In this document: positions 4,675 to 21,762 of the stretch, one piece after another | Layout of the letters: each line of letters begins with the position of its first letter | Numbering within the stretch: the stretch's first letter is position 1 | DNA from: a virus | Strand: one strand, 5' to 3' | Virus record (IMG/VR): IMGVR_UViG_3300012936_003649 | Coordinates: 14,975 to 78,974 of that record | Length of the DNA: 64,000 nucleotides | Notes under the pieces: model-generated | Seen by the model: the letters and a program-made list of their open reading frames with translations, nothing else | Databases searched by the model: none | What the model was told of the DNA's origin: nothing | Made by a program: the position numbers and the translations under genes

Positions 4675-6699
4675 ATGCCTTATACAATTAATTTCACTGA
4701 CGTAACAAACAAAGGTAGCATAACCGTTGAAGACAATGATATCAACGTAACAACTAGTTTAAGTTTAGTTGGACGTAATACAACAAGTTATGGTGTTGAA
4801 TTTAATCAAAACTTTTTAAAACTTTTAGAAAATTTTGCAAACTCAAGTGCTCCAACAAATCCAGTTGAAGGACAGTTATGGTATGATACAACTGCTGGCG
4901 GCGAACAATTAAAAGTTTATGACGGCACAACTTGGGTAGCAAGTGGAGGTTTGAAAAAAGCAATTGACGAACCAGGAGCGGCACAATCCGTTACTGGAGA
5001 TTTATGGGTAGACACAGATAATCAACAATTATATCTTTATACAGGTTCAGGCTGGACTCTAATTGGTCCTAATTATGCAGGCGGACTTAATACTGGTGTT
5101 AGTCCTGTAAAAATTATTGGACAAGACAATATTGAATATTCAGCACTACAAGTTGAAATAAGTGCAAAGCCGGTGGCTATAATAAGTTCAGATACATTTA
5201 CACCAAGAGCACAAATAAATGGCTTTGGACAAATTAATCCAGGTGTCAATTTAAGCACAGCAGACATCACAGGAGACGGCGCTCCAAGATTTTATGGACC
5301 AGCAGAGCAAGCAGAAAATTTAGTTGTTGCTGGTACTAAGGTTCCAGCGGCAAATTTTTTACGTGGTGATGTAGTTAGTACAACAACAAACCAATTAAAA
5401 GTTAATACAGATGATGGTATTATTTTAGGAAGTGGTAACCAAGTTGCACTAGGAGTTGAAGGGCAAATTGGTGTTATAAGTCATAACACAAGCGGATCAA
5501 GTTTAGATGTTCGTGTAAATGATCAAGGTACAACAAAAACAGTAATGCGTGTTGACTCTACAACGAATATTGGTATTAATAATACGGCTCCAAGTGAAGC
5601 ATTAGATGTAACAGGAAATATAAAAGTAAGTCAAGGTATAACTATTGATGGAACAACAGCAAGTTCAAACTTTGGAACAGGTAGTTTAATTGTAAAAGGT
5701 GGCGCTGGTTTTGCAGGAGATGTTAATATTGGCGGTACTATAAATGTAATAGGCGATACAGAAACAAGAAATGTTATTCCAGATGTAACAAATTCACGTA
5801 ACATAGGTTCCTTAGCAAACAAATATGCAGGAATATATGCAACTAATTTTTTCGGAAATGTTACAGGTAACGTTACAGGGCAAGTAAGTGGTAGAGCAGG
5901 AAGTGCAGACAAAATATCTAGTGCTACAAACTTTACAATGGCAGGAGAAGTAAGTGCGCCTACTATTATCTTTGACGGGCAAACAGGCGGAACTACAAAA
6001 ACATTTCAAACTACCGTTGCAAATAGTTTTATCAGTAATAAAACTTATACAAATGCCGCTGACGCTAGTGATGAATTTTTATTAAACAGAGTTCAAGGAC
6101 AAGTTGGCTTATACAGGATTAGTAGAAGAGATTTACTGTCAACAGTTCCAGTTAATCCTCCAGGAGTAATGATGCCTTATGCAGGTACTACTGCTCCTAG
6201 TTTTTGGTTATTGTGTTACGGACAAGAAGTATTACAAGCAGATTATCCTGAGTTATTCGATGTAATTGGATTTACTTATAAGCAGTCGGGATTACTGAGT
6301 GATCTTGGAGTAGCAAAATTTGCTTTACCTGATATGCGTGGTAGAACTGTAATGGGACTTGATGATATGGGCGGAACCGGTGCAGGAAGAGTTACAGGCT
6401 TACAAGGTAGTGAGTTAGGTAATAGCGGCGGTCAAGAAACAGTAACTATACAAAATGTTAATTTACCTGATCACGAGCACGATTTAGTTGTTGAAGGCAC
6501 ACAGTTTTATGCAATACTAGATGCACAAAAAGGTGTAAACAGTCCTGCGTCATCAATAATTTTTGATGCACCAACAGGACAAAATGCAGGGCAGGCTGTA
6601 ACAACAAGTGGCGGAGTTTCTGGAACCACAGGGCAGGCTATGGAAACACTAAGTCCGTTTATGTCCTTAAATTATATAATTTACACAGGGAAAGTTTAA
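4675..6699 (+). CDS. Tail fibre protein with C-terminal phage tail-collar domain
   Basis: PPGVMMPYAGTTAPSFWLLCYGQEV...YPELFDVIG...FALPDMRGRTVMG is the tail-collar signature; N-terminal module shared with the next two genes. Confidence 0.8.
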   Translation: MPYTINFTDVTNKGSITVEDNDINVTTSLSLVGRNTTSYGVEFNQNFLKLLENFANSSAPTNPVEGQLWYDTTAGGEQLKVYDGTTWVASGGLKKAIDEPGAAQSVTGDLWVDTDNQQLYLYTGSGWTLIGPNYAGGLNTGVSPVKIIGQDNIEYSALQVEISAKPVAIISSDTFTPRAQINGFGQINPGVNLSTADITGDGAPRFYGPAEQAENLVVAGTKVPAANFLRGDVVSTTTNQLKVNTDDGIILGSGNQVALGVEGQIGVISHNTSGSSLDVRVNDQGTTKTVMRVDSTTNIGINNTAPSEALDVTGNIKVSQGITIDGTTASSNFGTGSLIVKGGAGFAGDVNIGGTINVIGDTETRNVIPDVTNSRNIGSLANKYAGIYATNFFGNVTGNVTGQVSGRAGSADKISSATNFTMAGEVSAPTIIFDGQTGGTTKTFQTTVANSFISNKTYTNAADASDEFLLNRVQGQVGLYRISRRDLLSTVPVNPPGVMMPYAGTTAPSFWLLCYGQEVLQADYPELFDVIGFTYKQSGLLSDLGVAKFALPDMRGRTVMGLDDMGGTGAGRVTGLQGSELGNSGGQETVTIQNVNLPDHEHDLVVEGTQFYAILDAQKGVNSPASSIIFDAPTGQNAGQAVTTSGGVSGTTGQAMETLSPFMSLNYIIYTGKV

Positions 6700-8516
6700 T
6701 GGCGTATAAACTAAACAAAACAGACGGCACGTTACTAGTAGATTTAATTGACGGTACTATTGATGTTAATAGTACATCTCTTACATTAGTAGGTAGAAAT
6801 TATACAGGATACGGTGAAGCATTTAATGAAAATTTTATAAAATTATTAGAGAACTTTAGTAATGCTAATTCACCTATCAATCCTATTAAAGGACAACTTT
6901 GGTGGGACACAACAGAAGCACGTCTTAAAGTTTATGAAGGTTCTGTATTTAAAGCAGTAGGTGGACCTTTTGTTCAAAAAGATCAACCCGCAATGGTTGC
7001 TGGTGATTTATGGATGGACAATGTTAACAATCAACTTTATTTTTTCGATGGAACTGATTTAGTATTAGCAGGACCTATTTACAAAGCAGGACAAGGTGAA
7101 ACAGGATTTAGAATTGAAAGTGTACTTGATACTCAAGATAGAAGTCGTACACTTGCAAGTTTGTATTTAGGTAACGGCACTGACGGTACTACTTCTAGAG
7201 CCGCTGTAATTAGTAATGTAGAATTTACACCGGCAGTTGGATATGGAATAACAGGTATCACAGGAAATATCAAAAAAGGTATAAACATTATTGACAAAGA
7301 TAATTTTATATTTGAAGGTACAGCAGATGCCGCTAAAGCATTAATTAAAGCAGATGGTACAAAAGTTGGTGCAGATAATTTTGTTAGTTCAACAACAAAT
7401 AATGTTGTTACAGGATCGCTTGCAGTAAGTAATTCATCAGGTATTACTATTGGACCAAATGCTAACCAAACATTAAGTATTATTGGAAACTCATTTGTTT
7501 CTGGCAATGCACAACTAGATGAAAACTATTCAATAAGAGTTACAAGTTCAGCCGCAGGAGCACAACAAGTTGATGCTATATTCATAGACGCGGCTAATAA
7601 GCGTGTAGGTATATTTGACAATACACCAGAATATACATTAGATGTTACAGGAGATATTCGTGTAACTGGAAATTTATTAGTAGAAGGTTCAAGTGCAAGT
7701 ATAGATGTAAGTAATTTAAGAGTTGAAGACAAACAAATTGAACTTGCGATTACAAGTGATAGTACTCTTTTAACAGATGCTGGAGTCAACGATGCTGGTA
7801 TGGTTATTAGAGTTACAGGTGCAGATAAAAAATGGACTTGGTTACAAGCAACAAATAGTTGGACTACAACGGAAAATATTGATCTAACTACAGGAAACCA
7901 ATACAAAATTAACGGTACATCAGTTTTAAGTGGTAATACATTAGGAGCAGGTGTTACAGCATCTAGTCTTACAACTGTAGGTACATTAGTAAACTTAGAC
8001 GTTGATAATATTAATATCAACGGTAGTACAATTACAGCCGCTAGTGGAATGACGATAAATGCAAACGGTGATGTTAATTTTGCTAATCAAAAAATTACTG
8101 CTATAGCAACACCGTCAAATGCAACAGACGCGGCATCAAAACAATATGTTGATGAATCAATTGCGGCGTCGGCTATTTCATTTAGTATGGACGTTACTGG
8201 ATTGAACGATACACAAATTGGATTAGTACTAAACGATCTTGTGCCTGCAGGCACTGTTGCAAACGGAACAACTGCAAGAATACATTGTACAACACTTGGC
8301 GGCGCAAGTGTTACAGGCATTGATATTACCGCAGTTACAAGTAAATCATTTATAGCAGTAGACGCCGCAGGAGTTCAAAACGAATCAGTGTTACAAGATG
8401 TTGGTTTTGGAAGTGCAACAGGTACAGTTACGGTGACTGTGTCTAGATCATTAAAGGAGTACATCACAGCAGGTGGTAATTGGACATTTAGTCAAAACCT
8501 TACATCTAGTGTGTAA
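6699..8516 (+). CDS. Tail fibre protein (paralogue)
   Basis: N-terminus LVGRNYTGYGEAFNENFIKLLENF...GQLWWDT matches 4675 and 8549; beta-rich fibre-like body with DAASKQYVD motif. Confidence 0.7.
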   Translation: MAYKLNKTDGTLLVDLIDGTIDVNSTSLTLVGRNYTGYGEAFNENFIKLLENFSNANSPINPIKGQLWWDTTEARLKVYEGSVFKAVGGPFVQKDQPAMVAGDLWMDNVNNQLYFFDGTDLVLAGPIYKAGQGETGFRIESVLDTQDRSRTLASLYLGNGTDGTTSRAAVISNVEFTPAVGYGITGITGNIKKGINIIDKDNFIFEGTADAAKALIKADGTKVGADNFVSSTTNNVVTGSLAVSNSSGITIGPNANQTLSIIGNSFVSGNAQLDENYSIRVTSSAAGAQQVDAIFIDAANKRVGIFDNTPEYTLDVTGDIRVTGNLLVEGSSASIDVSNLRVEDKQIELAITSDSTLLTDAGVNDAGMVIRVTGADKKWTWLQATNSWTTTENIDLTTGNQYKINGTSVLSGNTLGAGVTASSLTTVGTLVNLDVDNININGSTITAASGMTINANGDVNFANQKITAIATPSNATDAASKQYVDESIAASAISFSMDVTGLNDTQIGLVLNDLVPAGTVANGTTARIHCTTLGGASVTGIDITAVTSKSFIAVDAAGVQNESVLQDVGFGSATGTVTVTVSRSLKEYITAGGNWTFSQNLTSSV

Positions 8517-8524
8517 GATAAATA
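8517..8524 (+). promoter_or_regulatory. T4-like late promoter box GATAAATA
   Basis: Intergenic, 24 nt before ATG 8549. Confidence 0.5.
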
Positions 8525-8548
8525 TAGTTATAATTAAAGGGTTGAAAC

Positions 8549-10030
8549 ATGGCTTATACAATTAACAAATACAGCGGAGCAACACTAGTAGTAGTGCAAG
8601 ACGGCACCGTTGATCTTACAACAGATTTAACATTTGTTGGTAAGAACTATGCCGGATACGGCGAAATACAAAATGAAAACTTTTTGTTTTTATTAGAAAA
8701 CTTTAGCGGAACTTCACAACCGCCAAAACCAGTCAGCGGGCAAATATGGCATGATTCAACAAACGGAAAAATTAAATTCTACGATGGTACAAAATTTAAA
8801 ACTACAGGCGGTGCAGAAGTTTCAACCACACAGCCAACAGGTTTAACAGCAGGAGATTTTTGGTGGGATTCAGGTAATAGCCAACTTTATACTTATAATG
8901 GTACATCATTTGTATTAGTAGGACCTCAAGGAGCAGGTTCCGGATTAACACAGATGCAGAGTAAAACAGTTCGTGATATCTCAAATGTTAACCACAGTGT
9001 GATTGCCGCAACAATTGAAGATGAAATTATTTACATTATAAGCGGGCAAGAATTTACTATTGATAGCACAGATCCTTTAAACGCTATAACAGGATTTGAT
9101 GTAGTTAAGAAAGGCTTAACACTTGTTAACACAACTGATGCAACTAATGGTGTAACTACACCTGCAGGACATTATTATTGGGGAACAGCAAGTAATGCCT
9201 TAAAACTAAATGGTTTAGAAGCAAGCAGTTTTGTACAAAGTTCTCCAGGCGTAGCAACTGAGTTTACTGATATTGTAAGATTTCCAGACGCAGGTATAAC
9301 AGTAGGTGATCAAAACGACTTACACATCTACATCGAAAATGGTAACCAAGGTGTTATTGCAAACGAAGTTGGTACAAATAATATTATAAGATTCAAAACA
9401 AGCAATGCTAATAGTGTGCAAACAAATAGTGTTATAATCCAGTCAACAGGAATGAATCCTGGTTCAACAAGCACATACACATTAGGATCAAGTATTGCAA
9501 AATGGTCAAACGTTTGGGCAGATAACTTCCAAGGCAATGCATCAAGTGCAAGTGCTATTAGATTTAATAGTGCAGATTATGCAGGAGATACAAGTGCTAT
9601 TGCAAGTACAACAGCATTAAGAGATAGTTCGGGCGATTTACATGCTAATTTCTTTAGAGGAACTGCAACACAAGCACAATACGCAGACCTTGCAGAAAAT
9701 TATGAAACAAATGAGCATTTACCAATTGGAACAGTAGTAGCAGTAGGCGGAGAAAAAGAAGTTCGTCCAGCAAAAGTAAGTGATTTTGCTATAGGTGTTA
9801 TTTCAGAATCACCAGCATATTTAATGAATAGTATGTCCGAAGGACAGGCAGTCGGCTTAAAAGGTCGTTTGCCAGTAAGAGTAAAAGGTCCAGTATCAAA
9901 AGGACAAGCAGTTTATGCATGGCAGGACGGTGTTGCTTCAACTATTGCTAGTAACGGATTAGTAGGTGTTGCATTAGAATCAAGCACTTCTGATACGGAG
10001 CAGTTAATAGAGTGTGTTTTAAAAGTATAA
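8549..10030 (+). CDS. Tail fibre protein with C-terminal chaperone-like (peptidase G2-like) domain
   Basis: Shared N-terminal module; C-terminus ADLAENY...GTVVAVGGEKEV...IGVISESPAYLMN...GRLPVRVKG resembles fibre intramolecular-chaperone domains. Confidence 0.65.
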   Translation: MAYTINKYSGATLVVVQDGTVDLTTDLTFVGKNYAGYGEIQNENFLFLLENFSGTSQPPKPVSGQIWHDSTNGKIKFYDGTKFKTTGGAEVSTTQPTGLTAGDFWWDSGNSQLYTYNGTSFVLVGPQGAGSGLTQMQSKTVRDISNVNHSVIAATIEDEIIYIISGQEFTIDSTDPLNAITGFDVVKKGLTLVNTTDATNGVTTPAGHYYWGTASNALKLNGLEASSFVQSSPGVATEFTDIVRFPDAGITVGDQNDLHIYIENGNQGVIANEVGTNNIIRFKTSNANSVQTNSVIIQSTGMNPGSTSTYTLGSSIAKWSNVWADNFQGNASSASAIRFNSADYAGDTSAIASTTALRDSSGDLHANFFRGTATQAQYADLAENYETNEHLPIGTVVAVGGEKEVRPAKVSDFAIGVISESPAYLMNSMSEGQAVGLKGRLPVRVKGPVSKGQAVYAWQDGVASTIASNGLVGVALESSTSDTEQLIECVLKV

Positions 10031-10033
10031 ATA
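10026..10033 (+). promoter_or_regulatory. T4 late promoter consensus TATAAATA
   Basis: Exact consensus before AAGGAAG and ATG 10062. Confidence 0.6.
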
Positions 10034-12034: not shown

Positions 12035-12370
12035 ATGGATCAACGTCTCAAAAAAGCATTAGAACATGCAGACTATGTCTCAACATTCAAAAATCAAAAA
12101 CGTATACTACAAGAAAAATACACGAAAGAATCTACAGTATATTATCAAGGCGGACAATTTACTGCAACTAGAGAATTTATTGCAAGTGTTCTAGCAATAA
12201 AATGTGATATTTTTGTAGACAATAATAATACTCCTATAAAAATTACAAACAAAGAAGCGTTTTACAACGAATTAGTCACAGCATACACAACTGCAAATGA
12301 AAATTACTATACAGAGTATCAAAAAATAATTGATAGCGAAAGAACTGTGCAAGGAATATTAAATGTCTAA
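12035..12370 (+). CDS. Hypothetical protein
   Basis: 111 aa ORF with promoter and RBS; overlaps the next gene. Confidence 0.6.
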   Translation: MDQRLKKALEHADYVSTFKNQKRILQEKYTKESTVYYQGGQFTATREFIASVLAIKCDIFVDNNNTPIKITNKEAFYNELVTAYTTANENYYTEYQKIIDSERTVQGILNV

Positions 12371-13151
12371 GGGCATACTTGTACACGCATTCAATAATGA
12401 AGAAATAGATTACGTCAAGCAAGCATGTATGGTTGCAGAACGTGTAAAAAAGTATCTTGATCTTCCTACAAGTGTTATAACTGATTGTAAAGTGCCAAAA
12501 AATGTTTTCGACCATGTAATTGAATTTGACACTCCGCAAAGATACACTAGAAAGTTGTATAATAACGGAAATCACGGAAAACATTTAACCTTTAAAAATA
12601 ATGCAAGAGTTTTAAGTTACGATTTATCACCGTATAAGCAAACACTAATGATTGATAGTGATATAATCATATGTGATGATGTTTATAAAAACTGTTTTGA
12701 ACAAGATAATCCTTTATTGATGTATAAAGATGCATATCATATAGGACAAAATTTAGATTATAGAGAATTTAATAAAATAAGCGATTCAAGTGTAGATTTT
12801 TATTGGGCAACTTGTGTATATTTTGTAAAATGTAAACAAAACAAAATATTTTTTGATTTGCTACAGCATATTGAAGAGCAATGGCGTCATTATAGAATGT
12901 TATATCAAATAGTACAGCGAACATACCGCAATGACTTTGCTTTTAGTATAGGTGCCCACATTATGAATAATCATTCTAAAGGCAACTTTGTCAATCCTAT
13001 GCCAGGAAAACTTTTTTACACTATAGACAAAGACATTACACACGAAATAAAACAAGATAAACTAACTTTTTTAATTGATAATAATCCAATTGCTACAAAA
13101 GGACTTACTGTACATGCTATGAACAAATATAGTTTAGAGGAATTACTATGA
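12363..13151 (+). CDS. GT-A fold glycosyltransferase-like protein
   Basis: YDLSPYKQTLMIDSD (DxD motif after a hydrophobic strand), RNDFAFS, late HAMNK. Confidence 0.6.
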   Translation: MSKGILVHAFNNEEIDYVKQACMVAERVKKYLDLPTSVITDCKVPKNVFDHVIEFDTPQRYTRKLYNNGNHGKHLTFKNNARVLSYDLSPYKQTLMIDSDIIICDDVYKNCFEQDNPLLMYKDAYHIGQNLDYREFNKISDSSVDFYWATCVYFVKCKQNKIFFDLLQHIEEQWRHYRMLYQIVQRTYRNDFAFSIGAHIMNNHSKGNFVNPMPGKLFYTIDKDITHEIKQDKLTFLIDNNPIATKGLTVHAMNKYSLEELL

Positions 13152-13954
13152 AACAAGGTGTATTAATATTTGCACAAAATAACCAAACAGATGATTATGT
13201 AAAACAAGCATACTTGTGTGCAATGAGTGGTATGAAAAACGGAAATATGCATTTTACACTAGTGACTGACAAAGAAGTTGAGGAAAAAATTGCATTTGTA
13301 TTTGATAAGGTTATTTTGTTAAAGCATGACCAAGCAAAAAACAGCGAATGGAAAATAGAAAATAGATGGAAAGCCTATAATCTTTCTCCATATGACGAAA
13401 CAATAGTTGTTGACAGTGATGTTTTATTTTTAGAAAAAATAAATTGGTCTAAATTTAAGGATCAAGAACTTTACTTTACACAAAATCCAATTACATATAG
13501 ACAAGAACCTATTAATGACACTTACTATAGAAAAGTTTTCTCACAAAATTACTTGATTAATATATATGCAGGATTATATTACTTCAAAAAAACAAAACGT
13601 GTAGCAAATTTTTTTGCATTATTGGAAACTGTCATAGAAAATTGGCAAGATTTTTATGAAATATTTTGTAAAAACCATAAACCAAAACATTGTAGTATTG
13701 ATGTTTGTGCCGCTATTGTATTAGAACTTATGGAATATGATAATTTTCAAGATGTTGACTTGATTGATTTTGTACACATGAAATTACACGCACAAAATTG
13801 GGTAGACACAAGTGAACATTGGCAACAGAAAGTTGATTGGTATTTTAATGATGGTTTAAAAATTGGTAATCACCAACAACACGGAGTATTTCATTACACT
13901 GAAAAAGACTTCTGTGACAAAATACTAGCAAGGTATGAAAAGTGTACTGGTTAA
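13148..13954 (+). CDS. GT-A fold glycosyltransferase-like protein (paralogue)
   Basis: YNLSPYDETIVVDSDVLF, FVHMK and FHY motifs; paralogous to 12363. Confidence 0.6.
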   Translation: MKQGVLIFAQNNQTDDYVKQAYLCAMSGMKNGNMHFTLVTDKEVEEKIAFVFDKVILLKHDQAKNSEWKIENRWKAYNLSPYDETIVVDSDVLFLEKINWSKFKDQELYFTQNPITYRQEPINDTYYRKVFSQNYLINIYAGLYYFKKTKRVANFFALLETVIENWQDFYEIFCKNHKPKHCSIDVCAAIVLELMEYDNFQDVDLIDFVHMKLHAQNWVDTSEHWQQKVDWYFNDGLKIGNHQQHGVFHYTEKDFCDKILARYEKCTG

Positions 13955-14469
13955 TATTTGATAAAGATTCTAGTAAAATTATAGGTTTACAAAACTACGC
14001 TCCAGATCATCAATATGCTTTGGAAGTCAACGAAGATTTGTATGTTGATTTTATTGAAAATCCTGATAAAAAAGAAAATTATGTTGTTAAATTTGATTTG
14101 GCAAAAAAGAAATATACATTATTAGAATATGAACAGCCAAAATTTAATTATGATATAAAAGACATAATTTATCATATTCCTAAAAAGGATAACGCAGATT
14201 GTATGATTACAAGAAACACTGAATGGCGTAATTGGAAATTATACGTCAATGTGAAAGAAAAACTTTTGTTAAATCCTAATCAACTATGCAAGTTTAGCGT
14301 AACAAAAGAAAATGATCCTCACTTGCTTATTAGAACATTTGATGCTACGGTAGAGCAAATAGCAAACGGACACATAGTTCAGTTCGAGTATGATGAAGAA
14401 GAAGGTGATGTAAGTATATACACACCAAAGATATTTAATAGTTACGGATATGTAGATGAAGCAATTTAA
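13942..14469 (+). CDS. Hypothetical protein
   Basis: 175 aa ORF overlapping both neighbours. Confidence 0.55.
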   Translation: MYWLIFDKDSSKIIGLQNYAPDHQYALEVNEDLYVDFIENPDKKENYVVKFDLAKKKYTLLEYEQPKFNYDIKDIIYHIPKKDNADCMITRNTEWRNWKLYVNVKEKLLLNPNQLCKFSVTKENDPHLLIRTFDATVEQIANGHIVQFEYDEEEGDVSIYTPKIFNSYGYVDEAI

Positions 14470-17400
14470 AGTTTTAGATTATGACATAATATATTTGTCG
14501 TATGATGAGCCAAATGCAGAAGAAAATTACACTAACTTATTAACAAAAGTTCCGTGGGCAAAACGTATTCATGGTGTAGAAGGATCTGATGCCGCACATA
14601 AGGCATGTGCAGAAATATCTGATACTAAAAGATTTATTACTATTGACGGTGACAACCAAATAGATGAACAATTCTTAAATCAAACAATTAACTTTCAAGA
14701 AGGAGTAGACCTTTCTAGGCATGTTGTAAGTTGGACTGCTGATAATATAATTAATGGATTACGGTATGGCAATGGCGGAATAAAATGTTGGGATAGAGAA
14801 ACAGTCCTAAAAATGAAAACACATGAAAATGCAGATCCTGATAACATTGCGGCAGGTATTGATTTTTGTTGGGACTTAGAATATATCCAAATTAACAGTT
14901 TGATGAGTACAGTTCACAATAATGCTACTCCACATCAAGCATGGCGTGCCGGCTTCCGTGAAGGTGTTAAAATGTGTTTAGTTGAAGGTATAAAACCTGC
15001 GAAAAAAGAACTTATAGGAAATCATTGGAAGAATTTAGAAAGACTATATGTTTGGTGTATGGCAGGAGCAGACGTACCTAACGGACTATGGGCAATATAC
15101 GGAGCCAGAGAAGGCTTACATAAAACAATGTGTACAGATTGGGATTATGTAAATGTACGTGATTTTGAATATCTTAATAATTTATGGAAAGAAAAAATAC
15201 AAACAGAAGATGACTTGTTAGACGCATGTAAAGATTATGGTGAACGTATTCTTGCAGAAATAGAATTACCTATTGCTGTAACGCCCTTAGACGCTCAACA
15301 AAGCGTTTTCTTTAAGAAAACATATCGCAACCCACCAAGACCTGAACATCCTTATATACGTACAAATACAACGCAATTTAACACCTTTTCTTCTAACTTT
15401 ATTCCTACTAAAAAAACAGAATATGATATAGTAATGATATCATATGACGAAGCAAATGCCGATGAAAATTTTAACAAATTAAAAACACGTTTTCCAAGAG
15501 CCCAACGTATACATGGAGTAAAAGGAATACATCAAGCACATATTGCGGCGGCAAATTTATGTTCAACTGAAATGTTTTGGATTGTAGATGGAGATGCTAT
15601 AATAGATGACAATTTTAATTTTGATTATGTCGCTGAAGATAACAGAGCAGTACATGTATGGCGTAGTAAAAATCCTATAAATGATTTAGTGTATGGATAT
15701 GGCGGAGTAAAATTATTTCCTACACAAATGACACGTGATATGGATACAAGCCGTCCTGATATGACTACAAGTATCAGTGACAGATTCAAAAAGATGGAAA
15801 AAATATCTTGCATCACAGGATTTAATACAAGTGAATTTAGTACTTGGCGTAGTGCATTTAGAGAATGTGCTAAATTAGCAAGTAAAGTTATTGACAGACA
15901 AAAGGAGGACGAAACAAATGAAAGACTCAAAACTTGGACAACCGTGGGACACGATAGACCATTTGGGGAATATGCTTTGGCAGGCGCTACCGCTGGTATG
16001 GAGTTTGGCCTTTCTAGGGGGTCTGATCTTCGGCTGATAAATGATTTTAATTGGTTATATGAACAGTTTACTGAAACTACAGATACAACAGAAGAATGGC
16101 AACATATGTATGGCGATAAAACAAACACGCCTGTTTCTGAACCAGTTGATATAGAACCAGTAGAAATACAAGCAGATACCGAATGGAAACAAACAGTACC
16201 TTTCAAAGAGGATGAACCACTTCCTCCTCGTGATAATTTTATTGTAGATTTACTAGATAGATTTGAAATACTTTATGGAGATAAGGTTACTAATCTTAGA
16301 CGATTTTATAATGACGGACACATGTTAGATATATTACGTATAATTGGTAATGAAGATTTACGTAAATTTGTAGAAGAAAGAAACTATCATAGTTTATTTA
16401 GATACCTAGAAGATAAAGGTATTGAAGATATTGAAGATATACGGAAAATGTATATTGAAAAAAATGTTCATAGTTTGTTTAGACTACTTGGTGAAGATCA
16501 TGACGAACTACGCAAAGTTGTTACTGAAGATAATGTCCATAGTTTATTTAGACTGGTTGGTGATGAACATGAAGATTTACGTAAAACAGTAGTTGAAGAA
16601 AATTTACATAGCCTGTTTAGATTGCTTGGAGACAAACATGAAGATCTAAGACAAGTTGTAGTACAAGAAAATATAGCACATCTATTTGATATGTTAGGTC
16701 CTGACTATGAAGATTTACGCAAAGCAATATTTGATAAAAATATCTACAGTCTGTTTAGAGTACTAGGACCAAATCATGATAACATGCGTTCAGCAATGTT
16801 AGATAAAAATTTACACGGATTGTTTAGGGTGTTAGGTAATGAATATGAAGATTTACGTAAAGCAACATTAGAAAAAAACTTCCATGCGTTATTTAGAGTA
16901 TTAGGTGATGAATACGAAGATTTACGTAAAGCAGTTACAGAAAAAAATGTTCATAGTCTATTTAGGCTTATAGATAATAGTGATACTACAGAAGATTTAA
17001 GGAAAGCATTAGTTGAATCTAATGAAATGAGTCTGTTTAGATTAATAGAAGACAAAGACACTTTAGTAGAAGATATTAAGAAAGCAGGACTATTTAAAAA
17101 TATTTGGAGTATAAAAAGATTAGAGCCTAGTGTCACTGACGAAGTTAATCTTACTATGGATAATAACAGGCATGCTTTATGGCGTGTGTTGGAAAAACAT
17201 ACAGGTAGTTTATATGTTAAACCATTAGAAATACTTGATAAGCAAAACATTAATTATGATAAAGATGTTATGAGTCGTGGACAATTAAAAAGTAAAAAAT
17301 GGTTAGTTGAAGAAGTTAAAAAAGTTTGTCCTGATTTAGGAACTGTATTTTTATGTGCAGGCTGGTATAGTAGTGTTGTGCCTATGTTGCAGGAAGCCAA

Positions 17401-17839
17401 AATAGATTTTGAAAAAATAAGAAGTTTTGATATCGATCCTGAGGCATGGAAAATAGCAGAAGTATTCAATTCAGATTTAGTTAGTGATGCATGGAAATTT
17501 AAAGCAACAACACAAGATATAATGGATATAAATTATATTGAACACAGTTATACAACTGAAAGGCTTGACGGCACAACTGCTCCTTTGACAGAAATGCCAC
17601 ACACTATTATCAACACAAGTTGTGAACATATTGATAATTTTTCTAAATGGTATGATTTATTACCAGAAGGCAGATTAATAATATTACAAAGCAACAACTA
17701 TTTTAGCATTGAAGAACATGTAAATTGTTCTAATAGTTTACAAGAGTTTAGTACAAGTGCACCTATGCAAAAAGTTTTATATGAAGGTGAACTTGACTTA
17801 GGTCAATACACGAGGTATATGAAAATTGGACGTAAGTAA
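14456..17839 (+). CDS. Multidomain protein: two GT-A-like domains, 23-aa helical repeat array, C-terminal SAM-dependent methyltransferase-like domain
   Basis: Duplicated domain YDI..[LI]SYDE.NA.EN...RIHGV.G...AH.A.A...[IV]DGD...YG.GG[IV]K...WR..FRE; repeats EDLRK...KN.HSLFR.LG; C-terminal VFLCAGWY...IRSFDIDP...IINTSCEH. Confidence 0.65.
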   Translation: MKQFKVLDYDIIYLSYDEPNAEENYTNLLTKVPWAKRIHGVEGSDAAHKACAEISDTKRFITIDGDNQIDEQFLNQTINFQEGVDLSRHVVSWTADNIINGLRYGNGGIKCWDRETVLKMKTHENADPDNIAAGIDFCWDLEYIQINSLMSTVHNNATPHQAWRAGFREGVKMCLVEGIKPAKKELIGNHWKNLERLYVWCMAGADVPNGLWAIYGAREGLHKTMCTDWDYVNVRDFEYLNNLWKEKIQTEDDLLDACKDYGERILAEIELPIAVTPLDAQQSVFFKKTYRNPPRPEHPYIRTNTTQFNTFSSNFIPTKKTEYDIVMISYDEANADENFNKLKTRFPRAQRIHGVKGIHQAHIAAANLCSTEMFWIVDGDAIIDDNFNFDYVAEDNRAVHVWRSKNPINDLVYGYGGVKLFPTQMTRDMDTSRPDMTTSISDRFKKMEKISCITGFNTSEFSTWRSAFRECAKLASKVIDRQKEDETNERLKTWTTVGHDRPFGEYALAGATAGMEFGLSRGSDLRLINDFNWLYEQFTETTDTTEEWQHMYGDKTNTPVSEPVDIEPVEIQADTEWKQTVPFKEDEPLPPRDNFIVDLLDRFEILYGDKVTNLRRFYNDGHMLDILRIIGNEDLRKFVEERNYHSLFRYLEDKGIEDIEDIRKMYIEKNVHSLFRLLGEDHDELRKVVTEDNVHSLFRLVGDEHEDLRKTVVEENLHSLFRLLGDKHEDLRQVVVQENIAHLFDMLGPDYEDLRKAIFDKNIYSLFRVLGPNHDNMRSAMLDKNLHGLFRVLGNEYEDLRKATLEKNFHALFRVLGDEYEDLRKAVTEKNVHSLFRLIDNSDTTEDLRKALVESNEMSLFRLIEDKDTLVEDIKKAGLFKNIWSIKRLEPSVTDEVNLTMDNNRHALWRVLEKHTGSLYVKPLEILDKQNINYDKDVMSRGQLKSKKWLVEEVKKVCPDLGTVFLCAGWYSSVVPMLQEAKIDFEKIRSFDIDPEAWKIAEVFNSDLVSDAWKFKATTQDIMDINYIEHSYTTERLDGTTAPLTEMPHTIINTSCEHIDNFSKWYDLLPEGRLIILQSNNYFSIEEHVNCSNSLQEFSTSAPMQKVLYEGELDLGQYTRYMKIGRK
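16352..17122 (+). repeat. About 11 in-frame tandem repeats of ~69 nt (23 aa, consensus EDLRKAV.EKNVHSLFRLLGDEH)
   Basis: Counted in the translation; recurrent GAAGATTTACG and CATAGT.T.TTTAG at the DNA level. Confidence 0.9.
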
Positions 17840-18050
17840 ATTAACACTTAGAGAATTACAAACTGAAAGTGCTAGAGCCTTAAGTACTATGGAAGCAACT
17901 AATAATAACATTTATAAGTTCAACAAGCAAGCACATCACAATAGCCAAAATTGGTATGTGGCTGTGATTGAGTGGTATGTAAATACATATGGAGGACTTC
18001 CAAGCCAAGTAGGCCCAGGGAAAGATGTAAAATTAGTATACGATGTATAG
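17826..18050 (+). CDS. Small hypothetical protein (74 aa)
   Basis: Fills the gap with overlaps to both neighbours; GAGG upstream; TTG start. Confidence 0.55.
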   Translation: MDVSKLTLRELQTESARALSTMEATNNNIYKFNKQAHHNSQNWYVAVIEWYVNTYGGLPSQVGPGKDVKLVYDV

Positions 18051-19125
18051 ATACGAAAATATTAAGGAAGTGCATTTAGAAGTTACACAAAGGTGCCAAG
18101 CGGCATGTCCTATGTGTGATCGTAATATGAACGGTGGTGCTGATAATCCTCATATTACAAATGCTGAACTAAGTTTAGAAGATGCAAAACAAATGTTCAA
18201 ACCGGAGTTTATTCAGCAGTTAAATGTTATGTATATGTGCGGCAACCTAGGAGATCCTATTGTTGCAAAAGATACATTAGAAATATTTCAATACTTTAGA
18301 GAACACAATGCTAATATGTGGTTAAGTATGAATACAAATGCAGGTGCAAAAGATATTTACTGGTGGGCAAAACTTGCAGAAGTAATAGGACGCAGAGGTG
18401 CTGTAATTTTTAGTGTAGACGGATTGCGTGACACTAATCATTTGTATAGGCAAAACGTTGTATGGGATAATGTAGAACGTAATATGCAAGCATTTATTGA
18501 TGCTGGCGGCAGAGCCCGTTGGGACTTTTTAATATTTCAACACAACGAACATCAAGTAGAAGAAGCAGAAGCACTTGCAAATCAATGGGGTTGTGAAAAA
18601 TTTATTAAGAAAAAATCAGGTAGATTCATTACAAGTGATATTAAACCAAAGTATGAACACCAAGCAGTAAATCGAAAAGGTGCAGAAACACAAAAATTGG
18701 CTCCGCCTAAAGAAGAAAAGAATAAGAATTTAGCATTACTAAAACAAAAAGAAATAGAAAAATCATACGGAAGTATGAAAGAATATTTAGACAAATGCAA
18801 CATAACTTGTAAGGTTGCTAAACAAGGAAGTATTTTTGTTACAGCCGAAGGATTGTTAATGCCTTGTTGTTGGACCGCTGGACGTATGTACAAATGGTGG
18901 CATGAAGATCCTAAAGTAGAACAAATATGGGATCATATAGATAGTGCTGGTGGAAAAAAAGGCATCAGTCTAATTGACAATGATCTTAAAACAGTAGTCA
19001 ATGGTAGGCTAATACATAGTATTTCATCAAGTTGGAACAAGTCTAGTATTGCAGATGGTAAACTTGGAGTTTGTGCTCAAAAGTGTGGAAGCGAGTTTGA
19101 TCCTTATGCAGAGCAGTTCAAGTAA
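18043..19125 (+). CDS. Radical SAM enzyme with C-terminal twitch/SPASM-like Cys domain
   Basis: CQAACPMC (CxxxCxxC), MCGNLGDP, MNTN, FSVDG; C-terminal C...GSIFVTAEGLLMPCC...CAQKC. Confidence 0.9.
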   Translation: MYRYENIKEVHLEVTQRCQAACPMCDRNMNGGADNPHITNAELSLEDAKQMFKPEFIQQLNVMYMCGNLGDPIVAKDTLEIFQYFREHNANMWLSMNTNAGAKDIYWWAKLAEVIGRRGAVIFSVDGLRDTNHLYRQNVVWDNVERNMQAFIDAGGRARWDFLIFQHNEHQVEEAEALANQWGCEKFIKKKSGRFITSDIKPKYEHQAVNRKGAETQKLAPPKEEKNKNLALLKQKEIEKSYGSMKEYLDKCNITCKVAKQGSIFVTAEGLLMPCCWTAGRMYKWWHEDPKVEQIWDHIDSAGGKKGISLIDNDLKTVVNGRLIHSISSSWNKSSIADGKLGVCAQKCGSEFDPYAEQFK

Positions 19126-20259
19126 TTATTTACTGCTATAATAACAATCTGCATTAAATCCAATAAATTTATCAATACTTTCGTATTTTACTTTTCTTTT
19201 GTAATCAGGACGAGGATTTACAGCCATACCAAATTCAGATGCCATTATACTATGTAACGACACAGCCATTTGATGCATATGTGGTCTAGCATCCTCAGAG
19301 TCTAGACTTGCATTGTTACCTCTACTTTTAAGATTTTTAAAAGTTGAATAATCTTGATTGCCTTCTAAAGTTCTAAGTGCAACTAATTTTAGTTTCGGAC
19401 CTAAATATTCATCTTTAAACAAATCTACACCAAATGATCTAGCCATGATAGCATATCCAAACATACTATTTGCACCTAATGTATGATACCAATAACCCCT
19501 GTTACCTCTAAAACTATTGTTATTAATGTATCCGTCTTTGGTAATTGTTTTAAGCATACTATTTCTACGTATTTTAATTTCCTTATATGCTAAATTTTTA
19601 TCATTTGTCCAATGAGCATATGCAAGAACACCCATTCCACCATCACCCCATTCGTAAAAACCATTGTCGTGTAATGATGCTGAAGCATATGCTTTTACAA
19701 ATTTATTGTATGCTTTCTTAAAGTATTTTGAAAGTATTTGTTGATCGTTTTCAGTCATATGTTCTTTCAAAATTATAGCACTATACATCATAGCCATAAA
19801 TGTAAAACTTGTGTGTTGCGGAGTATGATTATGACACGTAGCATTTTTATCTCCATCCCCCCAACATCCACTATTACCAAACTTTCTAGTAGATAAAAGT
19901 GCTTCTGCTTTTGCAATATAAACAAGGGTAGCAACGACATCTTGTGCTAGACGTTTATTATTTGTTGCCTCGGCTTTATAAGTTTGTCTTAATAGTTCTG
20001 ACCATCTATCTGATAATCCATCATGATTAACAGTTAAACTAGTGTCATTTTCGAATAACTTGTTAGCATTAATTTTAGCAAGGTCTTTCGGAGGCAAACC
20101 TTCTGTTTTTGCTACTACACATTGTTTGCCTTTAATTTGATCTACAAGCAAATCATCCGGAAAATTTATTGGATTTTTGGCATCTAAAGAACCGCTATGA
20201 GCGGTCATACACCCAGTAAGTAGTACTGTTGATAGTATTAAAGGTACAATTTTTTTCAT
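19126..20259 (-). CDS. Lipoprotein with alginate-lyase-like (alpha/alpha toroid) domain
   Basis: Likely start MKKIVPLILSTVLLTGC (lipobox); helical body with I.KDGYI...RGNRGYWYH resembling the polysaccharide-lyase RG...YH motif. Confidence 0.5.
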   Translation of the reverse strand: MKKIVPLILSTVLLTGCMTAHSGSLDAKNPINFPDDLLVDQIKGKQCVVAKTEGLPPKDLAKINANKLFENDTSLTVNHDGLSDRWSELLRQTYKAEATNNKRLAQDVVATLVYIAKAEALLSTRKFGNSGCWGDGDKNATCHNHTPQHTSFTFMAMMYSAIILKEHMTENDQQILSKYFKKAYNKFVKAYASASLHDNGFYEWGDGGMGVLAYAHWTNDKNLAYKEIKIRRNSMLKTITKDGYINNNSFRGNRGYWYHTLGANSMFGYAIMARSFGVDLFKDEYLGPKLKLVALRTLEGNQDYSTFKNLKSRGNNASLDSEDARPHMHQMAVSLHSIMASEFGMAVNPRPDYKRKVKYESIDKFIGFNADCYYSSK

Positions 20260-20270
20260 AAATTTATCCA

Positions 20271-20350
20271 TATAAATAATTAAAACTATAGTTAATTGTA
20301 ACATATAACAGCCAGAAGTCAAGGAAATTGGTAAAATCCACGAATAAGTA
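20271..20350 (+). promoter_or_regulatory. Late-type boxes TATAAATA (20271-20278) and AATAAGTA (20343-20350)
   Basis: Upstream of the radical SAM array; the second box lies 5 nt before ATG 20356. Confidence 0.5.
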
Positions 20351-20355
20351 ATAGT

Positions 20356-21762
20356 ATGACAAACATTAAATACCCATCCGATACCTTCTGCCTTCTTCCC
20401 TGGGTGCATTTAAGCACAAGACCAGATGGAAGTATGCGAGTTTGCTGTACTGCAAATGCAAGTTCAGTAGGACCTACTAATGACAAAGAGCATGGTGGGC
20501 AAGTAGGAATCCTAAAAGATGAACAAGGAAGACCTAACAATTTAAATGTAAGTGATTTTGAAACAGCATGGAATAGTACATATATGAAGAATGTACGAAA
20601 ACAAATGCTGAATGGTGAAATGCCACCTAGTTGTATTAAGTGTTATAAAGAAGAAGCCGCAGGACATAATTCAAAACGTATGTGGGAAACAGCATATTGG
20701 TCTGAGCGTGTTGATGTTGATAAAGTAATTGCTAATACAGGAGAAGACGGATCAGTGCCTCCACAACTTGCTTATATTGATTTACGTTTCGGTACAAAAT
20801 GTCAATTAGCGTGTGTAATGTGTAGTCCGCACGATTCAAGTGGTTGGATTAAAGACTACAAAAAGATTTTTCCGGATGTAAAAAATGAATCTCTAAAAGA
20901 AACTATGCAATGGAAAGACAAAGGCAGTTATAACGGTAGTAGTTATAATTGGCACAAACAAAATCCTACATTTTGGAAACAGTTTTATGAGCAGATGCCT
21001 AGTATGCAACAAATTTATTTTGCAGGCGGCGAAAGTCTTATTATTGAAGAACACTACGAAATACTTGAACATGCTATCAAAATGGGCTATGCAAAAGATT
21101 TAGAACTACGTTATAATTCAAATGGTGTTGAATGGCGTGATGATTTGTTTGACTTATGGAAAGAATTTAAATTAGTACGTTTTCATTATTCAATAGATAG
21201 TATTAAAGAAATGAATGATTACATACGTTATCCTAGTACTTGGAAACGTCAAGAAGAAGTTTTTCACATACTAGATAATGAAACAAGTAATAATGTAGAA
21301 GTAACAGTTGCTTGTGCAGTTCAAGCACTAAACATATATTATATTCCTGACTTTATAAAGTGGAAACTTACACAAGGATTCAAAAAAATTAATATGTGGC
21401 CTTTTGGTGCAGGCGCTATTAACTATCATTTTGTTTATCACCCTCCGCATTTGAATGTTAAAATTTTGCCTAAATGGTTCAAAGAAGAGTGTCGTAAAAA
21501 GTACGAAGAATTTTACCCTTGGTGGGAAGAAAATTGGGAACTAGGTGTTCCTAGTTGGCATAAAGGCAAAGTACCGTATCAAAAATGGCGTGATGCAAGT
21601 TATGGTATTAGTAGACTAGAAGGTATGCTAAAATTTATGGAAAGCGAAGACTGGAGTAGGCGTTTGCCGGAAATGAAAGAGTTCCTTGACTTATGCGACA
21701 AACAGCGTGGAATAACTTTTGCTGAAACATTCCCAGAAATGAAGGACATATTCAATGGCTAA
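20356..21762 (+). CDS. N-terminal twitch-domain radical SAM enzyme 1
   Basis: FCLLPWVHL..RPDG..RVCC...CIKC, then CQLACVMC, FAGGES, YNSN, SID. Confidence 0.9.
   Translation: MTNIKYPSDTFCLLPWVHLSTRPDGSMRVCCTANASSVGPTNDKEHGGQVGILKDEQGRPNNLNVSDFETAWNSTYMKNVRKQMLNGEMPPSCIKCYKEEAAGHNSKRMWETAYWSERVDVDKVIANTGEDGSVPPQLAYIDLRFGTKCQLACVMCSPHDSSGWIKDYKKIFPDVKNESLKETMQWKDKGSYNGSSYNWHKQNPTFWKQFYEQMPSMQQIYFAGGESLIIEEHYEILEHAIKMGYAKDLELRYNSNGVEWRDDLFDLWKEFKLVRFHYSIDSIKEMNDYIRYPSTWKRQEEVFHILDNETSNNVEVTVACAVQALNIYYIPDFIKWKLTQGFKKINMWPFGAGAINYHFVYHPPHLNVKILPKWFKEECRKKYEEFYPWWEENWELGVPSWHKGKVPYQKWRDASYGISRLEGMLKFMESEDWSRRLPEMKEFLDLCDKQRGITFAETFPEMKDIFNG

Follow-up and report, generated by a model that had tools for sequence, protein, structure and literature searches.

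The question raised by this locus is why a phage would join two glycosyltransferase-like domains, a long array of helical repeats and a methyltransferase-like domain in one chain, and whether the array measures the length of a glycan. The window, by which we mean the whole 64,000-nucleotide stretch of DNA that was analysed, comes from an uncultured marine giant phage whose record is 22% complete. The open reading frame (ORF) at 14456–17839 on its plus strand is intact, starts with ATG, encodes 1127 residues and overlaps each neighbouring ORF by 14 nt. It is a natural fusion, and an assembly or frameshift artefact was ruled out by 326 fused homologues from independent data sets. For the whole protein nothing significant was found in Pfam, PHROGs or NCBIfam; the PDB gave no significant sequence match, either by phmmer or by profiles of D1 and of the repeats plus the methyltransferase domain (MT), and Pfam run on each member of the D1 and MT alignments returned no significant match. 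All of the domain assignments in Table 1 rest on modelled folds.

Table 1. Features of the ORF at 14456–17839 and of the genes adjoining it, in window coordinates.
Feature	Coordinates	Strand	Basis
D1, predicted GT-A-fold glycosyltransferase-like domain, aa 1–300	14456..15355	+	AlphaFold2, VIA, Foldseek
Short basic inter-domain linker, aa 301–322	15356..15421	+	pI 9.99; pLDDT <50 at 310–320
D2, paralogue of D1, aa 323–545	15422..16090	+	BLASTP vs D1; conserved DGD
Acidic Pro/Thr/Glu tether, aa 546–590, specific to fused forms	16091..16225	+	pI 4.05; pLDDT 29–51
preR, conserved helical cap	16226..16357	+	Conservation; N-terminal in stand-alone repeat-MT proteins
Ten canonical 23-aa helix-hairpin repeats, aa 635–870	16358..17065	+	Tandem Repeats Finder, HMM, AlphaFold2
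Degenerate terminal hairpins joining arm to methyltransferase, aa 871–930	17066..17245	+	Helices to 929; weak HMM match
Predicted class I SAM-methyltransferase-fold domain, aa 931–1127, plus stop codon	17246..17839	+	VIA fold matches
74-aa partner ORF overlapping the end of the MT gene	17826..18050	+	Conserved in related loci
Upstream module genes: paralogous pair (12363–13151, 13148–13954) and 175-aa ORF	12363..14469	+	Synteny

The sequence-only reading of this DNA had seen two homologous, DGD-containing domains of GT-A type, and this part of it is borne out. BLASTP of residues 1–300 against 318–545 gives 32% identity with an E of 1e-38, and the two domains are paralogues. The DGD motifs lie at residues 64–66 in D1 (nt 14645–14653) and 378–380 in D2 (nt 15587–15595), each placed by AlphaFold2 directly after a strand (59–64 and 373–378, respectively), and none of the four aspartates (D64, D66, D378 and D380) varies across 66 homologues. 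When D1 is modelled alone with AlphaFold2 its pLDDT is 90.4, with a core (residues 1–156) and a helical half (residues 157–300). The best 50 VIA matches, with Z from about 9.8 to 6.8, all belong to the GT-A/NDP-sugar transferase superfamily and cover residues 1–156; the first of them (Z 9.8) aligns 138 residues with an rmsd of 3.2, and a second VIA look gave 90 chains with Z of at least 8. Foldseek matches include WrtF, SunS/ThuS and PBCV-1 A64R at E about 1e-4. The predicted fold of D1 is that of the GT-A/NDP-sugar transferases, with a Rossmann-like alpha/beta/alpha nucleotide-binding core.

At the level of catalogued families, the query protein matches no GT family in Pfam and falls outside the Pfam/CAZy GT2 (Glycos_transf_2) profile. 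Glyco_tranf_2_2 is touched by one of 25 D1 homologues (Pfam, E 0.0018), and a precomputed PF00535 match is present in one of 120 homologues among the matches listed. Comparison of the D1 profile with one GT2 sequence from a Dyadobacter locus by hhalign was not significant, the weak match falling exactly on the DGD of the GT2. A D2 homologue in Dyadobacter sits among GT1, GT2 and methyltransferase genes, and one in Streptomyces adjoins a GT1 gene. The D1/D2 family is uncatalogued and contributes two new domains of predicted GT-A type.

For the C-terminus, the earlier suggestion of a SAM-methyltransferase-like domain holds as regards the fold. Residues 932–1127 match NodS with a VIA Z of 15.7 (rmsd 2.7, 163 aligned) and BioC with 15.4; 50 further methyltransferases follow at Z of at least 12.8, and the best 50 matches are methyltransferases without exception, which points to a class I methyltransferase fold. 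D992 is invariant at the end of beta-2 (strand 987–992), D1021 after strand 3 is nearly invariant, and an NTSCEH motif follows beta-4. The glycine loop reads C-A-G-W-Y instead of GxGxG, with only G969 invariant, and because of this departure SAM binding by the domain is not assured. Methyltransf_31 is the sole Pfam match among members of the MT alignment (1 of 16, E 3e-4), and hhalign of the MT profile against one bona fide methyltransferase from the Dyadobacter locus was not significant.

Between the two catalytic halves, the acidic Pro/Thr linker noticed earlier can be confirmed at residues 546–590 (pI 4.05, rich in Pro, Thr and Glu, pLDDT <50), and it is the least conserved segment of the protein, with 3–88% identity among homologues. 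The preR segment that follows lies at the N-terminus of stand-alone repeat-MT proteins, and in many of the closer homologues its conservation exceeds that of D1, D2 and MT (84–100% vs. 58–93% for MT in the first 16 rows). Tandem Repeats Finder detects a 69-nt period over 16432–16965, and a repeat HMM finds 10 units at residues 635–869 with an exact 23-aa spacing, 8 of them at E about 1e-15, with the consensus L-R-K-A-V-x-E-x-N-x-H-S-L-F-R-L-L-G. Beyond these clear units there are about four degenerate ones, with helices that reach residue 929 at pLDDT 75–93 and a single weak HMM match at 902–912, so that the previous count of about 11 helical repeats was a fair one. Over 501 repeats, R2 is conserved at 100%, N9 at 99% and R15 at 97%, and the level of conservation in the terminal repeats equals that in the catalytic domains.

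Each repeat unit is modelled by AlphaFold2 as two helices of about 8 and 11 residues; N9 falls in a loop of two residues that precedes helix B, and G18 follows that helix. The region 594–929 contains 28 helices of 7–14 residues (14 hairpins) and no long helix. Of the two architectures that had been proposed for the array, an extended rod or a solenoid, the model agrees with the second in being a stack of short helix hairpins, and it has no extended coiled coil; a coiled coil for the spacer is rejected as the helices are too short. The arm is also acidic (pI 5.6), on which ground a DNA-tracking solenoid is rejected. In the repeat region Pfam gave only sub-threshold, chance-level matches (DUF4197, Wtap, BBS2_CtH, Urb2), and the ESM Atlas gave no usable match to it; VIA on the full model is saturated by methyltransferases and says nothing about the repeat fold. 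The 23-aa helical repeat is probably new.

The distribution of the repeats among homologues makes it clear that they form an N-terminal arm of the methyltransferase and not a free spacer. The MT domain is present in 108 of 112 shorter repeat-bearing proteins (the remaining 4 are short fragments; repeats were detected in 107 of the 108), and the array was seen only with this methyltransferase. An IMG/VR scan of related viral loci found the order D1 ... D2 followed by preR, 0–9 repeats and MT in 80 of 80, usually as separate overlapping genes, with the D2 gene directly upstream of the MT gene, and usually overlapping it, in every one. Homologues also include D1-D2, D2-MT and D1-MT fusions as well as D1-D2-MT without repeats. 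Being natural fusions of separately encoded proteins, these argue, in the Rosetta-stone sense, that D1, D2 and MT work together. The module comprises 2,685 clusters at 50% identity and occurs on at least 598 viral contigs.

A comparison of repeat counts in homologues had been named as a check on the idea of a ruler, and the number does vary, from 0 to 13, in whole internal 23-aa units. It differs even between proteins that share 77% identity or more, the two ends of the array remaining orthologous, and repeat-free forms are common, as are direct fusions of D2 to MT. Inspection of the locus tables by eye showed no apparent link of repeat number to how long the adjacent fibre-like gene is or to the partial-D2 unit count.

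The enzyme gene is located within a conserved radical-SAM island, where the surrounding genes mostly encode radical SAM and redox enzymes, and tail-fibre-like genes precede the module here as well as elsewhere among the loci. The upstream gene families are present in 43 and 29 of the 80 loci, in the same order; the paralogous pair is syntenic with gp353/352 of Ralstonia phage RsoM2USA, and the 175-aa ORF has no match in that phage. DSD motifs can be seen by eye in the upstream genes, for which Pfam gives no match. In 65 of the 80 loci the 74-aa ORF comes after the MT gene, in most cases immediately, and its conservation far exceeds that of the enzymes; a RiPP-type precursor was rejected as its identity on account of this conservation and of the lack of Cys in the window copy. 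RsoM2USA itself encodes homologues of D1 (gp350, 43% identity), D2 (gp348, 46%) and MT (gp347, 29%), all annotated as hypothetical proteins, in a module that abuts the structural module. It differs in that these are separate genes, those for D1 and D2 flanking a radical-SAM gene (gp349), and in having no 23-aa repeat array.

Neither a membrane-spanning segment nor an amphipathic anchor was found in the fused protein, whose highest 19-residue hydropathy (1.24) falls within the core of MT. Among the plus-strand ORFs of the island none exceeds 1.6 or contains a membrane-spanning segment, and none of the 20 neighbouring ORFs scanned belongs to a transporter family, ABC transporters included.

The reading we prefer, to which we attach an even chance, is that of a soluble phage enzyme that builds a glycan and caps it with a methyl group. 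In its logic it would come closest to A064R of chloroviruses, a GT-GT-MT protein that transfers two rhamnoses and then methylates the last of them at 2-O (PMC9614988). The protein would be a soluble, cytoplasmic glycan-assembly enzyme with three activities, derived by fusion from three proteins that in phages would normally form a working complex. D1 and D2 would act as DxD-type, metal- and NDP-sugar-dependent glycosyltransferases, each adding one kind of sugar, and the C-terminal class I methyltransferase would then methylate, and so cap, the product. The arm, made up of preR and a rigid hairpin stack, may hold the methyltransferase on or near D2, with preR mediating complex formation and the distance between the two growing by one hairpin per repeat. 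The acceptor would most likely be a soluble macromolecule made late in infection, for instance a virion or tail-fibre protein, or alternatively a sugar-bearing product of the adjoining radical-SAM island. A glycan-building role is probable because related phages encode the parts as neighbouring genes beside tail-fibre genes. Counting against it are the lack of a sequence match to any curated GT or MT family, the fold scores of nucleotidyltransferases, which nearly equal those of glycosyltransferases, and the atypical glycine loop of MT. Neither a pathway for nucleotide sugars nor an acceptor was identified, and the variation from 0 to 13 repeats is only loosely explained, since an enzyme of the A064R type needs no spacer.

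That variation would find a direct use in a polymerase, ruler and terminator of the kind that the sequence-only reading proposed. D1 and D2 would alternate in polymerising a disaccharide-repeat glycan, the hairpin stack would be a rigid ruler, and only those chains reaching the distal methyltransferase would be capped, the repeat number setting the length. The fold calls and the WbbB/WbdA-WbdD-like layout of that proposal have stood, and repeat number does vary among homologues. There is no coiled coil, no membrane anchor was found and no transporter among the ORFs scanned, and we consider the proposal unlikely. In its favour, systems of the WbdD and WbbB kind operate with methyl caps and spacers (PMC11231755), the tandem pair of GT-A domains has the K4CP polymerase as its top Foldseek match, a terminator-type enzyme lies at the far end of the repeat arm, conserved preR stands where a polymerase docking site would be, and arm length shifts in exact 23-aa units between orthologous ends; yet the spacer consists of short helices, the disordered and poorly conserved tether of about 45 aa between the GTs and the arm would make a fixed distance imprecise if preR did not dock on D2, zero-repeat forms and fusions of D2 straight to MT are common, and the non-polymerising A064R fits at least as well. 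The specific version in which a soluble phage polymerase-terminator has its chain length set by a countable stack of 23-residue hairpins on the capping methyltransferase, and not by a coiled coil, seems to us rather doubtful. Alternatively, the stack could be a binding platform, comparable to the TPR superhelix in O-GlcNAc transferase or to the helical domains that glycocin S-glycosyltransferases carry. It would take hold of an extended protein (a fibre, for example), of a polymer substrate or of partner enzymes and bring them to the methyltransferase. The near-invariant polar residues (R2, N9, R15, K3, E7 and S12 over the 501 repeats) exceed what a passive spacer should need, and the conservation of the terminal repeats, the attachment of the array to MT and not to the GTs, the adjoining tail-fibre genes and the presence of SunS and ThuS among the D1 fold matches are in keeping with such a role. 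N9 and G18, however, may be helix caps given their positions flanking helix B, charged residues may form inter-repeat ladders, many homologues with 0–2 repeats evidently function and no ligand was identified, which leaves the platform a rather improbable account.

The identity of D1 and D2 as glycosyltransferases should also be weighed, since MobA, IspD and cytidylyltransferases score Z 8–8.8 against D1, near the best glycosyltransferases at 9.9. Nucleotidyl- or phospho-transferases of the same fold superfamily, decorating a small-molecule product of the radical-SAM island, would agree with the failure of the query to match a Pfam GT family and with neighbours that are mostly radical SAM and redox enzymes. 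We judge this very unlikely, as the DxD is invariant at the GT-A position, the N-terminal glycine-rich nucleotidyltransferase loop is missing, the strand-1 motif SYDEPN resembles GT2, genes of the GT2 and GT1 families flank the bacterial homologues or are fused to them, and one family member has the precomputed PF00535 match. A target in the phage genome, namely a modified base on which the enzyme would assemble and methylate a glycan, has precedent in phage glycosyltransferases that build glycans on DNA (Pyle et al. 2024, cited in PMC12619734), and a QueE-like gene lies at 59721–60647 of the same fragment. The module, however, follows tail-fibre genes, one of the only two TATAAATA boxes in the window is placed about 4.4 kb upstream, ahead of a run of co-directional genes to which the enzyme gene belongs, and an arm of pI 5.6 is unlike a DNA-tracking solenoid, so that hypermodification of DNA is most improbable; thymidylate-synthase/hydroxymethylase genes were not found in the phage's own record, which at 22% completeness is uninformative on this point.

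To our knowledge, virus-encoded glycan assembly is understood in detail only in chloroviruses and in a few mycobacteriophages, and the present locus belongs to a large uncatalogued module that combines two new GT-A-type domains, as predicted, with a divergent methyltransferase bearing a probably new repeat. By analogy, the layout would fit a length-measuring role of the repeats. If the repeats do set chain length, phages would tune the length of glycans on virions or another product by adding or deleting whole repeats (0–13 observed), and the arm would be an independently evolved, modular molecular ruler. With its natural series from 0 to 13 repeats, the module offers a test, already set up, of whether glycan length can be measured by a stack of helical repeats, and the cultured phage RsoM2USA makes the module testable.

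Among known systems, the E. coli K4 chondroitin polymerase K4CP, a bifunctional glycosaminoglycan polymerase, likewise carries a tandem pair of GT-A domains with DxD motifs in a single chain, and it is the best Foldseek PDB match of the full model (E 8e-6) and matches D1 at a VIA Z of 7.6. Superposition of the whole chains is poor (TM 0.11–0.18), which indicates that the domain arrangement is not common to both; K4CP also has neither methyltransferase nor repeat arm, and identity is 9–12%. WbbB of Klebsiella O12 and WbdA/WbdD of E. coli O9a and Klebsiella O3/O5 resemble the layout described here in that an elongated helical spacer of variable length separates polymerase-type GT modules from a terminator, in that split (WbdA + WbdD) and fused (WbbB) versions both exist (PMC11231755) and, for WbdD-type terminators, in methyl capping. 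Their spacer is an extended coiled coil, in place of the stacked 23-aa hairpins seen here. They associate with the membrane and are linked to an ABC transporter that reads the cap, whereas no membrane segment is present here and no transporter among the ORFs scanned, and their GT and terminator families are different ones with no sequence similarity. The chlorovirus enzyme, PBCV-1 A064R, is a protein of 638 aa with a GT-A rhamnosyltransferase, a second rhamnosyltransferase and a class I methyltransferase (PMC9614988). It acts in a eukaryotic host on a capsid N-glycan acceptor, it has no repeat arm, and its GT domains are of unrelated folds or families, whereas D1 and D2 are paralogues. The structures of its domain 1 (2p73, 2p72 and 2p6w) are among the Foldseek matches of D1 (E 3.6e-4, 13–14% identity), a likeness detected at the fold level only, and both enzymes are virus-encoded, soluble, single polypeptides in which two GT domains are followed by a class I methyltransferase, as predicted for the protein described here.

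The fusion ORF lies in an IMG/VR viral record of 78,974 bp whose completeness is 22% (CheckV), which makes that record a fragment of a giant phage. Neither the whole protein nor its domain profiles gave an above-threshold match in sequence searches of Pfam, PHROGs, NCBIfam and PDB. The sequence-only reading had described two homologous DGD-containing domains, an acidic Pro/Thr linker, about 11 helical 23-aa repeats and a SAM-methyltransferase-like domain, and this layout holds with the segment limits collected in the table. The two GT-A-like domains, D1 and D2, match each other at E 1e-38 with 32% identity, and both Asp of each DGD (residues 64-66 and 378-380) are invariant in the 66 homologues compared. 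The linker is a tether with the lowest conservation of any segment of the protein.

Features of the fusion ORF and its surroundings (nucleotides of the window, residues of the fusion protein)
Feature	Position	Strand	Remarks
Three consecutive tail-fibre/collar-fibre-like proteins	4675-10030	+	Upstream of the enzyme island
Late-promoter boxes TATAAATA	10026-10033 and 20271-20278	+	Each just upstream of a gene start (10062, 20356)
Fusion ORF	14456-17839	+	Intact, 1127 aa; 14-nt overlap with each neighbouring ORF
D1	residues 1-300	+	Paralogue of D2
D2	residues 318-545	+	Paralogue of D1
Acidic Pro/Thr/Glu tether	residues 546-590	+	pI 4.05, pLDDT <50
preR helical cap	residues 591-634
Canonical 23-aa repeats (n = 10)	residues 635-870		Followed by about 3 degenerate units
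74-aa ORF	17826-18050	+	TTG start; overlaps the methyltransferase stop by 14 nt

Structural comparison bears out both proposed fold classes. The C-terminal domain (MT, residues 932-1127) matches the class I SAM methyltransferases NodS (Z 15.7, rmsd 2.7 Å, 163 aligned) and BioC (Z 15.4), and methyltransferases fill its entire top 50. An invariant acidic residue, D992, ends strand 2, and since the glycine loop is an unusual C-A-G-W-Y, the predicted binding of SAM is graded as likely at most. D1 folded alone with a pTM of 0.88 and a pLDDT of 90.4, and for its residues 1-156 the top 50 representative PDB chains all belong to one superfamily, either as GT-A glycosyltransferases or as nucleotidyltransferases (Z 9.8-6.8). 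Foldseek matches of D1 at E ~1e-4 include WrtF, the glycocin S-glycosyltransferases SunS and ThuS, and the glycosyltransferase domain of PBCV-1 A64R, while the top match of the full model is the two-GT-A chondroitin polymerase K4CP (E 8e-6).

The repeats give a 69-nt period across 16432-16965 (Tandem Repeats Finder), and 8 of the 10 canonical units are recovered by a repeat HMM at E ~1e-15. The sequence-only reading had left the choice between an extended rod and a compact solenoid to structure prediction, and the full-length AlphaFold2 model (66 homologues as input, mean pLDDT 83) has no single long helix in residues 594-929 but 14 helix hairpins, built from 28 helices of 7-14 residues each. 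Across 501 homologue repeats the consensus is L-R-K-A-V-x-E-x-N-x-H-S-L-F-R-L-L-G, with R2 conserved in 100%, N9 in 99% and R15 in 97%. The repeat array belongs to the methyltransferase: the MT domain is also present on 108 of 112 shorter repeat-carrying proteins (repeats were detected in 107 of these 108, nearly all with preR too), and the other four are fragments of 67-186 aa. Repeat counts in homologues, a comparison that the earlier reading had called for, do vary, from 0 to 13 and by whole 23-aa units. In close relatives, units one to four and the final two are positional orthologues (91-100% identity), and the differences in copy number come from whole internal units gained or lost. The preR cap is 84-100% identical where MT is 58-93%, and it exceeds D1, D2 and MT in conservation in many closer homologues. 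Because copies change by whole internal units and preR is so conserved, the arm, that is, preR and the repeat stack on the N-terminal side of MT, is under structural constraint, and its far tip is conserved. Within fusion proteins it is connected to D2 only through the floppy, fast-evolving tether.

Among 1.84 billion cluster representatives searched, 2,685 were relatives at E <=1e-3, and their architectures include D1 alone, D2 alone, D1-D2, D1-MT, D2-MT, repeat-less D1-D2-MT, and preR-repeats-MT proteins that carry no GT domain. The full fusion occurs in one sub-lineage, and an assembly artefact is ruled out as its origin since 326 homologues of near full length come from independent data sets, marine ones among them. 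Scanning IMG/VR with the MT domain gave at least 598 viral loci, and in all 80 analysed a D2 gene lies directly upstream of a gene for preR, 0-9 repeats and MT, usually overlapping it; wherever D1 falls within the fetched stretch, it precedes D2, at distances of as much as several kb. The cultured Ralstonia jumbo phage RsoM2USA carries the three parts as separate genes (gp350, 43% identical to D1; gp348, 46% to D2; gp347, 29% to MT) with a radical-SAM gene, gp349, between the D1 and D2 homologues and no repeat array; this module adjoins annotated structural genes and is itself unannotated. The fusion ORF is a merger of a conserved three-gene set.

Two further observations concern the relatives. 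One homologous protein, P0002, is 97-100% identical to the fusion protein in D1, D2, preR and all repeats and only 66% identical in MT, as if near-identical phages had recently exchanged MT alone as a cassette. Other phages encode a D2 protein with 1-15 N-terminal copies of a degenerate half-domain of ~100 aa (P0142, P0146, P0154, P0212; loci L028, L049, L098). These proteins are up to 1,789 aa long, which means that MT is not the only partner in the module with a repeat arm of variable number. The half-domains align to positions ~45-110 of the D2 profile, and in P0146, the sole protein read through, they have lost the DxD.

When the ORFs of the 80 loci were clustered, a conserved order emerged: a fibre-like gene, two unknowns, a paralogous pair (12363-13954 in the window), a 175-aa ORF, D1, an optional N-terminal-twitch radical SAM gene, D2, arm-MT, the 74-aa ORF, a radical SAM gene (18043-19125) and further radical SAM genes. 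In the window the later part of the island encodes a B12-radical SAM protein and an Asp/Asn hydroxylase-like protein as well as many radical SAM/SPASM proteins. In 65 of the 80 loci the MT gene is followed by the 74-aa ORF, usually directly, and the conservation of this ORF is far above that of the enzymes, with many near-invariant positions over most of its length; the window copy has no Cys and no family match. Its product is probably a small partner that the module cannot do without. The three fibre-like proteins share an N-terminal module (phrog_14394 and phrog_15511) and differ in their C-terminal fibre/collar domains, so that they resemble a set of fibre cassettes arrayed just upstream of the island.

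The T4-type late-promoter box occurs twice in 64 kb against 12.5 copies expected by chance, and this rarity, together with placement upstream of gene starts, suggests that late transcription units take in the fusion ORF and that stray boxes are selected against. Between ~17,800 and 40,800 a single minus-strand ORF of 100 aa or more was seen; it is alginate-lyase-like (19126-20409; PF05426, E 1.6e-7) and has a lipoprotein-type signal after an internal Met, a hydrophobic stretch ending in Cys; it may encode a secreted polysaccharide lyase. Separate from the island, a QueE-like radical SAM gene (59721-60647, minus strand; phrog_2076, E 5.5e-54) is a hint that the source phage has a 7-deazaguanine pathway.

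Single-domain D2 homologues (~35% identity) are common in the chromosomes of Streptomyces, Kitasatospora and other actinomycetes (L106-L162), and in L117, the one actinomycete locus examined, the Streptomyces copy is followed by a GT1 gene. A Dyadobacter homologue of similar identity (L120) carries a fused Pfam GT2 domain and lies amid radical SAM, GT1, GT2, histidine phosphatase and two methyltransferase genes. This gene company supports a glycan role by association.

The best-supported reading, to which we give about an even chance, is that the fusion protein is a soluble enzyme that builds and caps a glycan. D1 and D2 would each transfer one sugar from an NDP-sugar, MT would methylate their product, and the arm would keep MT on or near D2. 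The sequence-only reading had instead proposed a polymerase whose repeats act as a ruler before a methylating terminator. Its layout parallels WbbB and WbdA/WbdD, with split and fused forms in both cases (PMC11231755), and it agrees with an arm that changes length by whole units and with a conserved distal cap; it nevertheless seems unlikely, as the coiled coil of such rulers is absent, forms with zero repeats are common, the tether lacks order, no transporter was found among the ORFs scanned, and there is neither a membrane anchor nor, in the fusion protein or any plus-strand ORF of the island, a membrane-spanning segment. Slightly less probable still is a hairpin stack serving as a binding platform, for which the polar residues near-invariant in every repeat speak, although N9 and G18 may merely cap helix B. 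The fold of D1 alone also admits other transferases of its superfamily, but the position of the DxD and a GT2-like SYDEPN after strand 1, where nucleotidyltransferases have a glycine-rich loop, favour a glycosyltransferase, and we regard other chemistry by D1 and D2 as improbable; DNA hypermodification is the least probable reading, with very little weight.

The GT-A fold, the class I methyltransferase fold and multi-domain viral glycan enzymes are already known kinds. What is new is an uncatalogued GT-A family and an uncatalogued 23-aa hairpin repeat that is tied to one methyltransferase and varies countably from 0 to 13. Among known systems, WbbB and WbdA/WbdD resemble the module in layout and in having split and fused forms, but are defined by a coiled coil (PMC11231755). 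The nearest precedent in logic for the best-supported reading is A064R of a chlorovirus: this viral protein has the order GT-GT-MT, attaches two rhamnoses and methylates the terminal rhamnose at its 2-O position (PMC9614988).
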